Source: an uncultured Planctomycetaceae bacterium (GTDB lineage Bacteria; Planctomycetota; Planctomycetia; Planctomycetales; Planctomycetaceae). Taken from it: a stretch of DNA of 64,000 nt. Below the pieces are notes generated by a model, which saw nothing but the letters and a program-made list of their open reading frames with translations, had not been told where the DNA came from and did no database searches. The stretch is taken from NCBI GenBank assembly GCA_963976765.1, contig CAXBME010000010.1, forward strand, positions 124,001 through 188,000, in the 5' to 3' direction. Shown here in pieces: positions 57,593 to 64,000 of this stretch. Each line of letters starts with the position of its first letter. Within the stretch, counting starts at the first letter, position 1. A program made the position numbers and the translations under genes.

Positions 57593-58411
57593 CTACGCCG
57601 CAGTGGTGCTGAGGTTTCGCTGGATCTGCTCCAGGTCGGCGGCACTGCCGAGCACCAGGCAGACGTAAACCGTGTCGTGCTCGCGCCAGACAGCGGCGGT
57701 CAACTCTCGACCGGCTCGCGGAATGTATTGAGCATCCGTCTGAGAAAAGCTACCAGAACCCGGCAATGGCGCGACGCGACTGGCAGGAATGGCTGCCAGA
57801 ATTCCGGCAATCGGAGCGTTTCTCGATCGGGAAAAGCGGAAGACAGTGACAGCCGCGTCGTGTCCAGCTTTGTCGTCCAGATCGACTCCGAGAATCTCAG
57901 AAGCAACTTTCACTTGTCGATTGCCGACCCACGGGCCGGGAAGTGCGAACTCGAAACCCGTATCGAACTTCATGTTTGCCGATAAATCGATCGGCAAACG
58001 CTCCAGCAGTTCTGCCTCGGTAAACTGAACCGGCTGAGACTGCCACAGCCAGCCGGCAACCCCGATCATCAACGCACTGACGACTGAAACCGCTGCCTTA
58101 ATCATTCGCCGTCGCGAAACTCCAGAACTCAGCGTTCCGGATTCATTGTTTCCAGCAGGCGTGTCGTCGGTAGCGGCGCTGGCTTTCTGAGCAGAACGAT
58201 CAAGTAGCGCTGAACGCAGTCCCGCTGGCACGTCGACATCCTGTACGACTTCGACGACCGCGCGATCGAAACTCTGCATCGACGCGAAGGCTTCCTGGCA
58301 GGCATCGCACGATTCCAGATGCGCACGAGCATCGGCCATCTCGGGCAGATCGAGATCGTCCGAGTCCGGCCTGACGCAATCCAGAAATTCAAGTGCGGTC
58401 TGACAGTCCAT
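57593..58411 (-). CDS. Zinc-binding (ZAS) transmembrane anti-sigma factor
   Basis: HLESCDAC (HxxxCxxC), single TM, directly downstream of an ECF sigma gene. Confidence 0.85.
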   Translation of the reverse strand: MDCQTALEFLDCVRPDSDDLDLPEMADARAHLESCDACQEAFASMQSFDRAVVEVVQDVDVPAGLRSALLDRSAQKASAATDDTPAGNNESGTLSSGVSRRRMIKAAVSVVSALMIGVAGWLWQSQPVQFTEAELLERLPIDLSANMKFDTGFEFALPGPWVGNRQVKVASEILGVDLDDKAGHDAAVTVFRFSRSRNAPIAGILAAIPASRVAPLPGSGSFSQTDAQYIPRAGRELTAAVWREHDTVYVCLVLGSAADLEQIQRNLSTTAA

Positions 58412-58494: not shown

Positions 58495-58989
58495 TTAATA
58501 ACTCTCCGGGCTGATCCGTTCGCGAAGCTGCTTTTTTCCCCGCGACAGGCGGCTCATCACCGTGCCGATCGGGACGTCCAGTTGCTCGGCGATTTCCCGG
58601 TAACTCAACTCTCGAAAGTAAAACAGGAGAAGTACAGAACGGAATTCCTCGGGCAGCTCATTCAAGACCTGCTGCAAAGATTCACTGTCGAGCGTCTGCT
58701 CAACCCGTTCGTCGCTCCCTCGTTTTTGATCAACCGGATCGGCGAGCACTTCCAGAGCGACTTCTCCATGAGTCACCCTGTCGCGAATTCGTCGGCGGTA
58801 GAGGTTACGAACGATCATGAACAACCACGCTCGAACTTTGTCGGGATCACGCAACGTGTCGAGTTTGCGTTGAGCATCCAGAAACGCCTGCTGCGAAATA
58901 TCTTCCGCCTCATGAGACGTTCCTGAAAGCCGATACGCAAATCGGAACACCGATTCGTAGTGCTGATCGACGAGTTGAGATATCTCCAC
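58495..58989 (-). CDS. ECF sigma factor
   Basis: FRFAYRL, AEDISQQAF, SYREIAEQLDVPIGTVMSRLSRG; start GTG 58989. Confidence 0.93.
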   Translation of the reverse strand: MEISQLVDQHYESVFRFAYRLSGTSHEAEDISQQAFLDAQRKLDTLRDPDKVRAWLFMIVRNLYRRRIRDRVTHGEVALEVLADPVDQKRGSDERVEQTLDSESLQQVLNELPEEFRSVLLLFYFRELSYREIAEQLDVPIGTVMSRLSRGKKQLRERISPESY

Positions 58990-59167
58990 GGTCGGCCTGC
59001 CCTGAAACCAAGTTCCGCCAGAGGGGATGCGTAAACGTTTCCGCATATTCCCGGAAATTTGCGAAGCCTAACGAATTTTCGCAGTTGCGCCACGATGTCG
59101 ACGTCGCCCTGAGCGGAAACCTCATCCGCCCGACAGCTCAGGAGATTAGATCTTGTCTATTTCGAAC

Positions 59168-61471: not shown

Positions 61472-61518
61472 CTATTATTGAGCCTTCCACGCTGTGGCTT
61501 GACGCTCGAAAGCGAGAC

Positions 61519-62310
61519 ATGCGGAATATTCGATTGACGATTGCGTACGATGGATCGAACTACGTGGGCTGGCAGGTTCAGCCAAATGGTCCGACCGTCC
61601 AGGTGGCCGTCGAAAAGGCAATTAAGATGCTGACCGGCTTCGACGCCAGCGTACTTTCCGCCGGTCGGACGGATTCGGGAGTGCACGCGCTCGGGCAGGT
61701 CGCCAGCTTTCAGACCGAGTCGACGATTCCGGTCGATGGATTCCGGAAAGCTCTGAATAAGTTTCTGCCTGACGACGTCATCGTCCGAGACGCTCAGGAA
61801 GTGCCGCTGGACTTTCACGCGACGTTCTCGGCAGTCCAGAAACGCTACCGTTACGTGATCCACAACTGCCGGACTCACAACCCGTTTCTGCGGAATTACG
61901 TCTGGCATTTTCATCAGGACATCGACTCGGCAGCGATGCACGAGGCTGCGCAGGAACTGGTTGGAAAGCACGATTTCCGCAGCTTCGAATCTCACTGGCC
62001 GAACAAGGCCAGCAGCGTCCGCACCGTCAAAGAGGTCACCGTGCGGCGGCAGAACTTCTGTCCGTTGTGGCTGGGCGACGCCGATCAGCAGCCGTCCGAT
62101 AACAACTCAGGCGATTTCGTCTGGCTGGAAATCGTCGCGGACGGATTTCTCTACAACATGGTCCGGGCGATTGTCGGCACGCTGGTTCCCGTCGGTCGAG
62201 GCCGCTGGAACGGCGACGACATTCGCCGGATTCTGACCGCAATGACTCGGTCCGAAGCGGGCGACACGGCACCACCGAACGGGCTGTACCTGGTCCATGT
62301 GGACTACTGA
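61519..62310 (+). CDS. truA: tRNA pseudouridine(38-40) synthase
   Basis: AYDGSNYVGWQVQ, AGRTDSGVHA, FHA, GKHDFRSF, FLYNMVR, TAPPNGLYL. Confidence 0.97.
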   Translation: MRNIRLTIAYDGSNYVGWQVQPNGPTVQVAVEKAIKMLTGFDASVLSAGRTDSGVHALGQVASFQTESTIPVDGFRKALNKFLPDDVIVRDAQEVPLDFHATFSAVQKRYRYVIHNCRTHNPFLRNYVWHFHQDIDSAAMHEAAQELVGKHDFRSFESHWPNKASSVRTVKEVTVRRQNFCPLWLGDADQQPSDNNSGDFVWLEIVADGFLYNMVRAIVGTLVPVGRGRWNGDDIRRILTAMTRSEAGDTAPPNGLYLVHVDY

Positions 62311-62346
62311 AACCAGCCCTGAAGATCAGAAAAAAGCAGCGGTCTG

Positions 62347-62506
62347 GGCACAGATTGTCACGGATGATCGAGATGCTTCGTGGAGCCATCCGTGTTTATC
62401 CATGAAATCCGTGGCTGTCTATTCTGAGTATGAAAAAGATCAGACGGACCACGAAAAACACGGAAGAATGATGCTTTTTCTGTGCCCTTCCATGTGTTCG
62501 GTGGTT
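62347..62506. repeat. Two adjacent imperfect inverted repeats (CACGGAT and CACGAAA families)
   Basis: GGCACAGATTGTCACGGAT...ATCCGTGGCT and GACCACGAAAAACACGGAA...TTCCATGTGTTCGGTGGTT. Confidence 0.65.
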
Positions 62507-62588
62507 ATTCGTTTTCCGAATTCTGGTTACTCCCGCCGACCGAAATTCGGCAATTCTCGAATAAATCCAAGTTTGATGACCATTTCCG

Positions 62589-62617
62589 CGAACCAGCCGT
62601 CGATTGTTCTGGTCAGA
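62589..62617 (+). promoter_or_regulatory. Possible ECF (sigmaE-like) promoter
   Basis: CGAACCA-N16-GTCAGA resembles the GAAC/GTC ECF promoter pattern. Confidence 0.35.
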
Positions 62618-62845
62618 GCAGCCAGGAGACGGTACAGACTGTATCATCAGCAGCCTGTAATAAACGCTCCGCTTACGCCGCACGGTGCGGCGATCAAACT
62701 TCGCCGTCGATGGACACTGACACGCTCGACCTGACCACAGTTCGATCGTTGATTCCAGTCGACGGCAACCGGCTCTGAGCAAAATTCAGAAAGGTTTACA
62801 GAGCCAACATCCTTTGTCCGCGGGAAGACCCGCAAAGGTGCTCCG

Positions 62846-63166
62846 ATGTTTAACGCACAGATCAACACGATTCAGCCGACCCAAATCAATGCCACGACAA
62901 CTGGTATTCTGGTCAATGGCGTACGTGTCGAGCGCGTAGAACGTCGTTTGAAGCGCCAGGACTGCGCCTCGAAACGCTCGTCCGATGCCTCGCTAATGGC
63001 GTCAATGAGCGGTTCATGTGGCTGTCCGAGTATGTCCCATCTATCGGAACATTATTCGGAACTCTGGCAAGGAGCCTACCCGGCCCCCGCGGCCAGATCA
63101 GCCGCAGCCAGCGTGCCCGCCCCGATATGGGGACGGCTTGTCGTGTTGAAAGCTCTTTCGAGCTGA
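62846..63166 (+). CDS. 106-aa upstream ORF / candidate leader peptide
   Basis: ATG preceded by SD-like AAAGGTG; low-complexity segmented peptide; lies in the structured leader of a sigma gene. Confidence 0.5.
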   Translation: MFNAQINTIQPTQINATTTGILVNGVRVERVERRLKRQDCASKRSSDASLMASMSGSCGCPSMSHLSEHYSELWQGAYPAPAARSAAASVPAPIWGRLVVLKALSS

Positions 63167-63660
63167 AGCAGTTGACCCAAACCTGCGAGTCACCTTTCGA
63201 GGCGTTTCGCAGAAATCAGGTCAAGGCAGGCTGAGGGGGCCCGATGGCTCAGTTCAGGCAGTTCGCTCACGCAACTGCTGAAGACTGAAACTTTCGAGCA
63301 TCCTCACTTTCGGTCGTGCTGGTTCGAGCTCCATCTGAAATTTTCAGATCGGAACTTCGATCTCAGTCGGCTCTGCCCGTTTCATTGCCCGTCGAAGCTG
63401 CAGGCGTTTCTGCATGCATTCGCTTTTGCCACGCAACTGGCATTCGCAACTTCGACAGACAGTTGAAGCAGGCTCGAAAGAAGCCCGCCACGCGACGATC
63501 GGCCGAGGTCACCAGCTCGTCTGCCAGTTGGGAATTCACGTTTCCAGGCAGCGACCTGAGCATCAAAGGCCAGCTCACGATGATTCAACTTCAGGCAAAC
63601 GATCCTTCAACACGCCTGACTTCTTCACAACCAAATGCCGCGGCGCATTGCGTCGAGGTT
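63134..63660 (+). ncRNA. Candidate highly structured cis-regulatory RNA
   Basis: Long-range stem 63134-63164/63471-63505 enclosing at least 5 hairpins, plus 3 further hairpins before the sigma start. Confidence 0.5.
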
Positions 63661-63682
63661 CAAATAAACAAGGTAGATCAAG

Positions 63683-64000
63683 ATGGAAGACACTCGAATG
63701 ATCGAGTTGGTTCGACTGGCTCAGGACCAGGACCGAGAGGCTTTCGGCCTGCTGGTTGAAGCGTTTGAGCCAACTGTTTACAGCATTGTTCTGCGACGAC
63801 TGCGGGACAACTCCGAGGCTCTCGAGTTGACTCAGGAAATCTTCATCCGAGCGATGCGGAAGATTGGTCAGCTACGCGAGCCGGAACGGTTCGCTGGCTG
63901 GCTTCGGCAGATCGCCGTTCGAATGGCGATCAACCGGATCGTACGACGCCCGAAAGAAGCACTGGTCGAGTCAGGGACGTTTGACAGCTTTCGAGCGGAC
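63683..64000 (+). CDS. ECF sigma factor, 3'-truncated (not in the ORF track)
   Basis: MEDTRMIELVRLAQDQDREAFGLLVEAFEPTVYSIVLRRLRDNSEALELTQEIFIRAMRKIGQLREPERFAGWLRQIAVRMAIN = region 2; SD AAGGT upstream. Confidence 0.9.
   Translation, partial: MEDTRMIELVRLAQDQDREAFGLLVEAFEPTVYSIVLRRLRDNSEALELTQEIFIRAMRKIGQLREPERFAGWLRQIAVRMAINRIVRRPKEALVESGTFDSFRAD

Follow-up and report, generated by a model that had tools for sequence, protein, structure and literature searches.

A class-wide leader architecture with a long upstream open reading frame ahead of a planctomycete extracytoplasmic function sigma factor: a candidate switch for translation stress

The 64-kb stretch of DNA analyzed here (the window; G000:C10:124001-188000), from an uncultured Planctomycetaceae bacterium, ends in a gene for a sigma factor of the extracytoplasmic function (ECF) type that is preceded, in order, by an ECF-type promoter, a 5' untranslated leader, a 106-codon upstream open reading frame (uORF) and a long non-coding spacer. 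Comparison with relatives revealed that the class-wide regulatory unit is this conserved architecture, and not a large folded RNA; it is defined by the layout and its conservation, by selection on both the peptide and the non-coding RNA, and by a shared promoter. The unit is likely a switch for translation stress that has not been described before. We judge it somewhat likelier than even that the leader open reading frame (ORF) acts in cis as a ribosome-stalling sensor, which would gate the sigma gene and thereby drive tRNA clusters and rtcB.

The truA stop codon ends at position 62310 and the sigma gene starts with an ATG at 63683, leaving a gap of 1372 nt; the initial annotation had correctly described a 1.37-kb gap holding one 106-codon ORF, which lies at 62846-63166. 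The sigma gene runs on the plus strand from 63683 to 64000 and continues to window position 64234 (G000:C10:187683-188234, the full ORF being taken from the genome), with a Shine-Dalgarno (SD) site at 63670-63674. Its 183-residue product is a short ECF factor with regions 2 and 4 only (Sigma70_r2 PF04542 and Sigma70_r4 PF04545, both above cut-off); it also matches TIGR02937 above cut-off, and an NCBIfam scan gave no named subfamily. Orthologues, nearly always single copy, were found in 130 of the family's 151 genomes; among 15 genomes representing other families of the class Planctomycetia, 10 have one. The orthologues were placed in Planctomycetaceae and Isosphaeraceae. Across 141 genomes of other classes the best scores were generic (E-value 2.5e-39 or weaker, versus 4.6e-55 or lower inside the class). 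The orthologues keep at least 55% identity with many invariant columns, and within the genus the ratio of nonsynonymous to synonymous substitution (dN/dS) is 0.09 for sigma and 0.10 for truA. Cultured strains carrying the full arrangement belong to Planctomicrobium, Planctopirus and Aquisphaera (loci L039, L063 and L065). The genes flanking sigma include no conserved neighbor across 94 distinct loci, and a Pfam scan of 72 first neighbors, of 131 picked, revealed no recurring anti-sigma factor, kinase or ferredoxin.

Motif discovery by expectation maximization (EM) upstream of the sigma orthologues revealed phased A/T tracts followed by GAAC[C]-17 nt-GTC in 70 of 71 non-redundant loci, with column frequencies of 0.99 for each of G, A, A and C and of 0.91-0.95 for G, T and C. 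In the window the promoter occupies 62590-62617 (+), with the -35 element GAACC at 62590-62594 and, after 17 nt, the -10 element GTCAGA at 62612-62617, which bears out the sigmaE-like pattern initially noted at 62589-62617; transcription is predicted to start near 62621-62624. An A/T-tract region at 62556-62589 (+), with a ~10-nt periodicity in the family profile, may act in the manner of an UP element. The plain promoter pattern, which sits 700-1500 nt upstream of sigma, was found at 87 of 89 loci; the antisense strand gave 15 and patterns with a wrong spacer 5-8. Promoter, SD site and an ORF of 91-154 codons are also present at 10/10 loci from six other families; two paralogous ECF genes lack this set. 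Within the genus, divergence falls to 0.027 at the promoter, against 0.63 just upstream of it and 0.75 at synonymous sites of truA. A sigma-70 promoter was also considered for the locus, and none was found.

Downstream of the promoter, the uORF (62846-63166, +) encodes a peptide with an Asn/Thr/Gln/Ile-rich N-terminus, a variable Ser/Ala/Pro-rich middle and a conserved C-terminal motif. Of the 94 distinct loci, four with less than 700 nt upstream were dropped; 90/90 of the rest carry an ORF on the strand of sigma that measures 90-197 codons (median 111) and stops 184-648 nt short of sigma. Applied to the 90 real regions, the same ORF-picking rule recovered an SD site together with a start rich in Asn, Thr, Ile and Gln in 81, compared with 2 of 90 reverse strands and 0, 0 and 0 in three shuffles. 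The reading frame is intact in 8/8 genus genomes; indels within it come in multiples of three, and indels beyond it do not. Values of dN/dS are 0.36 over the whole uORF and 0.14 over its last 20 codons, which supports the initially proposed uORF as a real, selected frame, and this selection suggests that it is translated. Synonymous divergence over codons 1-40 is 0.12, versus 0.30 for sigma, which points to an additional constraint at the RNA level. Of the first 25 residues, 13.4% are Asn, compared with 3.2% in ordinary genes, and the enrichment of Asn codons is 3-5 fold; the sets behind both figures were chosen in ways that favor such features. The N-terminus may also resemble a flagellin-like export signal. 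Sensing of transamidation through Asn/Gln codons was rejected for this genome, where asnS and glnS are present. No convincing paralogous uORF was found elsewhere in the genome (next best E-value 0.014).

The C-terminal motif, P-A-x-x-W-A/G-x-L-V-x-x-x-A-L-x-x-stop, spans 63116-63166 (+), with the codon of Trp95 at 63128-63130. The ending PAxxWAxLVxxxA occurs in 54 of 94 loci, with synonymous codons varying freely. A profile search of 1.84 billion proteins returned 154 clusters of homologues (50% identity), almost every one of them a stand-alone protein of 100-130 residues; among the best 10 clusters, the named ones are annotated as hypothetical. The Trp motif is present in 147 of the 150 homologues listed, and 119 of the 147 place Trp exactly 12 residues ahead of the stop; the last residue is mostly Ser, Gly, Ala or Leu. 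This pattern resembles that of arrest peptides and makes the ending a candidate arrest motif. Isosphaeraceae peptides end in Ala-rich tails instead, and those of other families differ again. At Isosphaeraceae loci including L065, L074, L081, L083 and L084, the uORF begins with MLNRTN..LSA..NRLNLGTRS, a stretch that is almost invariant down to its codons; with this start and an Ala-rich tail, this version of the uORF is a second leader subtype.

The same peptide features could be read differently. The uORF product might be a short-lived anti-sigma factor or adaptor acting in trans, whose C-terminal amphipathic helix would bind sigma and whose small-residue tail would serve as a protease tag; it would decay when translation falters and free sigma, with the same output as cis control. 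The ending is kept as protein (dN/dS 0.14 with synonymous variation), it has helical hydrophobic spacing and small terminal residues, and a terminal tag would likewise fix the distance from Trp to stop. The uORF also has a strong SD site (84/90 loci), no other anti-sigma lies nearby, and a labile regulator has been proposed for a tRNA array of Anabaena (PMC8421152). On the other side, sigma remains at least 55% identical while the peptide ending changes completely between families, and neither Pfam (52 uORF-peptide members) nor NCBIfam (4 members) gave a significant family, an anti-sigma domain included. A trans-acting factor would have no need of a selected spacer of 180-650 nt that is kept everywhere, and the low synonymous divergence of codons 1-40 likewise speaks for constraint on the RNA. 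A predicted complex of sigma with uORF residues 71-106 scored 0.02, which gives no answer and counts neither way. We regard a trans-acting anti-sigma as unlikely, though it is the main rival reading. Control in cis agrees with a peptide whose length and most of whose sequence are unconstrained, next to non-coding RNA under selection.

The selected non-coding RNA comprises the 5' leader (62622-62845, +) and the spacer (63167-63682, +), both with hairpins conserved in the genus. From ~62535 to sigma the sequence is 83-88% identical in 7/7 same-genus relatives, and its non-coding parts diverge by 0.08-0.18 (0.18 in the 5' leader; 0.15 over the spacer, 0.08 in its first 150 nt). BLAST found the leader stretch in none of 17 other genomes of the family, nhmmer traces in four sister lineages fade past the uORF, and a metagenome scan for further close leaders added just 5 loci. 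The initial annotation had described nearly continuous hairpins in the gap. The stretch 62311-62530 does not belong to the leader; it lies upstream of the promoter and contains a multicopy repeat: a palindromic element resembling repetitive extragenic palindromes (62345-62425, after truA), with three further copies in this genome and up to eight in relatives. All seven hairpins that the initial annotation had given with sequences are present at its coordinates, and an eighth, given by position (63249-63288), lies within a helix of the consensus fold for the genus.

As a conserved large RNA, these hairpins did not hold up. In the consensus fold, double changes occur in 6 of 61 pairs of the 5' leader (8 genus genomes) and 10 of 167 pairs of the spacer (7 close sequences), a modest support that comes from close kin. 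Folding is stronger than in dinucleotide shuffles, as had been expected (z: leader -3.7, uORF -6.1, spacer -2.6), but high scores also came from the antisense strand of the spacer (-5.4) and a piece of the sigma gene (-3.7), so the excess is not special to the leader. A large conserved structured non-coding RNA was rejected, given no similarity past close genera and no spacer motif; what is shared class-wide is the architecture, while the spacer sequence is lineage-specific. Rfam gave no match in 61500-64000 (best E-value 0.16) or in 10 distant orthologous loci, in keeping with the initial annotation, which had recognized none of several known RNA classes, and no tRNA or transfer-messenger RNA lies in the window.

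Among the regions considered, the sole structure covarying across the family is a five-pair hairpin, GCGGG-AAGA-CCCGC (62820-62833, +), which abuts the uORF SD site at 62834-62840. Its pairs are formed in 89% of 259 cells of the alignment, 13 with a double change, and none of 500 shuffles scored as high; 17-18 rows of this alignment are gapped, as Isosphaeraceae have a different hairpin at the same place.

The spacer is 516 nt long here and a candidate site of Rho-type premature termination. The genome has two Rho-family genes (G000:C4:313059 and C2:325733), and the plus strand of this spacer contains no intrinsic terminator. An alternative form of cis control would act on sigma translation or mRNA decay, with the position of the ribosome refolding the spacer and thereby opening the ribosome-binding site or shielding a nuclease site. 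Genus helices do run through the spacer up to the sigma SD, no terminator is conserved, and toiL-topAI works in this way (PMC12121999). The sigma SD, on the other hand, lies 180-650 nt from the uORF stop, is weakly paired in the genus fold and is unconserved in sequence, and we consider this mechanism rather improbable.

Candidate targets of sigma emerged from a genome scan with a profile trained on the sigma loci alone, in which the starts of two tRNA arrays rank first and second and the promoter of the sigma unit itself third. The two top sites lie 295 and 340 nt before the first tRNA of each array. These paralogous arrays, with a shared leader, are located at G000:C5:82598-88140 (L139, +; 39 tRNAs) and G000:C27:1-1678 (L138, -; 13 tRNAs), the latter apparently continuing at C74:74-3820 with 24 tRNAs; an ORF inside the C5 array (86866-87462) may be HNH-like. 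Both array leaders consist of an ECF-type promoter, a 32-codon ORF that is protein-identical in the two copies and an intrinsic terminator before the first tRNA. Among related array starts (the 30 best, from 301 genomes; besides the genome's own array, one match included the promoter), the promoter profile exceeds 13 before 24 of 29 clusters of at least 5 tRNAs, with none on the reverse strand and 6, 2, 4 and 2 with shifted spacers. Among the 26 array leaders that show the promoter pattern, the first tRNA is preceded by an intrinsic terminator in 24, and 10 have a related short leader ORF. The array leader has no Rfam match and is a candidate new attenuator family. No similar array was found in 141 genomes of other classes, which lack the sigma factor.

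Three rtcB genes, all on the minus strand, are present in this genome (G000:C5:89767-90924, C74:5452-6609 and C2:190102-191409), two of them convergent with the arrays and directly after them. A promoter-like GAACC-16-TGTC lies ~1.1 kb upstream of each array-adjoining copy. The promoter pattern precedes 15 of 29 rtcB genes, 13 of them at 220-340 nt, versus 2 on the antisense strand and 2-3 with wrong spacers. TROVE/Ro60 was rejected as a target; it occurs in 5 of 101 genomes, this one not among them, and 0/5 pass the profile. The initial annotation had missed both the peptide ending and the link through the promoter to tRNA clusters and rtcB.

From these data we infer that this sigma factor reads the GAACC-GTC promoter, that ribosomes stall in the uORF, that Rho terminates transcription in the spacer and, from these, the direction of control; that the leader controls sigma, as first proposed, is part of the same inference. 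A basal transcript would start at the promoter and its uORF would be translated. Smooth translation would let Rho end the transcript in the spacer, and stalling within the uORF would permit read-through into sigma, which probably then re-reads its own promoter and amplifies itself. As a response to translation stress, sigma would turn on the spare tRNA clusters and the RNA-repair gene rtcB. The stall in most Planctomycetaceae would probably owe its form to the C-terminal Trp motif, with the A site occupied by the stop codon as in TnaC, and in other families, which keep the uORF with different endings, sensing may be generic, as in whiB7.

Metatranscriptome assemblies of relatives provide weak hints on expression; they consist of contigs, a small share of each run, so that uncovered stretches and depths were unused as evidence. 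In three studies, RNA contigs start at the equivalent of ~62630-62670, just past the predicted start and within the 5' leader. Two contigs from one run, of one close and one distant relative, span both uORF and sigma, although a contig need not equal one transcript. These contigs, together with a second GAACC-GTC promoter in just 1 of 90 spacers and no shared motif by EM among the spacers, favor the single long transcript initially envisaged, its large folded RNA part aside. They also bear on the possibility that the promoter belongs to a different ECF sigma, with the uORF and sigma being two members of its regulon or separate units and the uORF product unrelated. Planctomycetes average ~40 ECF sigmas per genome (PMC7826278), and leader contigs from three runs end at 63257, 63193 and 63219, short of covering the spacer, although these are of low depth and lack a DNA control. 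Such a scheme sits poorly with the spacers and spanning contigs just described and with the linkage of uORF and sigma in all 100 loci examined while other neighbors change, and we consider it very improbable.

Several observations weigh against a stalling-dependent, Rho-gated switch. Stalling, termination and promoter use are predictions, and the genome has many ECF sigmas, so GAAC-GTC may be read by another of them. About 40 of 94 loci, and 10/10 loci of other families, lack the Trp motif, and the homologue sets were chosen with profiles favoring the Trp motif and the Asn-rich start. C exceeds G in 75 of 90 orthologous spacers, versus 50% of 893 control gaps, but the skew is mild (median 0.06) and the control comes from one genome, this one. 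The spacer is also well folded, an atypical property in a Rho loading site, and no terminator-antiterminator pair is conserved, terminator-like sites occurring in 14 of 90 spacers versus 5 antisense. As to the regulon, roughly ten tRNA clusters belong to a single genus and do not count as independent, and the full promoter profile is passed by just 5 of 29 rtcB genes. An expected target, smpB, was rejected, with 1 of 29 genes by profile (the single hit being in this genome) and 8 of 29, scattered, by pattern. The loose pattern is near background genome-wide (73 matches versus 42-59 in controls), so the regulon may be small.

Comparison with known systems places the unit closest to two kinds of translation-dependent attenuation. 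In Actinobacteria, whiB7 combines a variable uORF, attenuation and positive feedback, and whiB7/wblC resembles the present locus in its distal start, a uORF variable in length and sequence, a feedback regulator (feedback here being presumed) and a translation-stress output (PMC10274678). A variable uORF in a long leader is present here at 90/90 loci (90-197 residues), whereas the intrinsic terminator with antiterminator before the regulated gene is not conserved. The regulator in whiB7 is a WhiB protein and here an ECF sigma, whose likely targets are tRNA clusters and rtcB, and the uORF here is Asn-rich at its start with a fixed Trp motif at its end. TnaC, in turn, depends on W12, and its stall at P24, while the A site holds the stop codon, blocks Rho (10.1101/2021.03.31.437805). 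Similar to tnaC-tnaA, the present locus has a Trp ~12 residues from the peptide end, followed by the stop and a non-coding spacer before the regulated gene, the fixed Trp-stop distance being a feature of most Planctomycetaceae only. TnaC is a tryptophan sensor of 24 residues with a Pro at its end, whereas the peptide here has ~110 residues, no terminal Pro and predicted stalling.

With regard to the output, translation stress in Anabaena induces a long spare tRNA array together with rtcB, and array and rtcB are linked there as they are here (PMC8421152). The Anabaena trn operon is controlled by a repressor at direct repeats in sigma70-type promoters, whereas the planctomycete arrays have an ECF-type promoter and a terminator, often with a short leader ORF. 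In Escherichia coli, the leader peptide gene rseD overlaps rpoE and is CsrA-controlled. With a leader peptide gene preceding an ECF sigma that regulates itself, rseD-rpoE resembles the unit proposed here (PMC8595263); RpoE is mainly held by the anti-sigma RseA from the same operon, whereas the present uORF stops 516 nt short of sigma, which has no anti-sigma after it.

Among the ECF groups found only in planctomycetes, ECF58 alone lacks both an anti-sigma and a kinase or extension; no anti-sigma was found for it, and its regulation has been called elusive (PMC7826278). The available main text of that classification does not mention "leader" or "upstream open reading". The present sigma likewise has no anti-sigma in its neighborhood (94 loci; 72 first neighbors scanned), and the DUF3470/4Fe-4S neighbor of ECF58 subgroup s1 was found in 0/72 first neighbors at an E-value of 1e-8. 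ECF58 is described as having no conserved target promoter upstream, in contrast to the promoter present here in nearly all loci; the two were compared by description. A promoter this far upstream would be missed by a short search window. Jogler 2012 and Wiegand 2020 reportedly define further planctomycete ECF groups, and this sigma and its promoter may already be listed there. In the open literature, with most subscription journals outside its scope, our search found no description of this uORF, its motif or a planctomycete tRNA-array sigma.

A second, ordinary ECF sigma gene (58495-59046, -) is followed by a gene for a zinc-finger membrane protein (57593-58411, -), forming a typical anti-sigma pair. 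A genus-conserved protein of ~155 residues is encoded convergently with the leader-controlled sigma candidate (G000:C10:188462-189088, -; L001:3652-4278); the one copy scanned had no Pfam match at an E-value of 1e-8, and its hydrophobic N-terminal stretch resembles that of Flp-type pilins.

Altogether, the locus presents a core sigma of a whole bacterial class with an overlooked leader ORF, a sharply defined promoter and named targets. Tentatively, and with the balance leaning against so complete a scheme, Planctomycetia may possess a dedicated translation-damage sigma without any anti-sigma, switched by its own leader peptide, in which Asn-rich codons would report tRNA supply or damage and a Trp-anchored arrest would occur at the stop codon; this sigma would drive spare tRNA clusters, themselves behind a second leader-peptide attenuator, together with the RNA ligase RtcB. 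The Trp 12 residues from the stop is a candidate arrest motif that is testable in a cell-free system. Long tRNA arrays occur widely, and the 2021 study of Anabaena notes that information on their function had been missing until then (PMC8421152); the locus offers one testable answer both to the control of a sigma free of anti-sigma and to the control of such arrays. If true, the scheme would represent a new mode of ECF sigma control, a new family of arrest peptides and the regulator so far missing for long tRNA arrays beyond the cyanobacteria.

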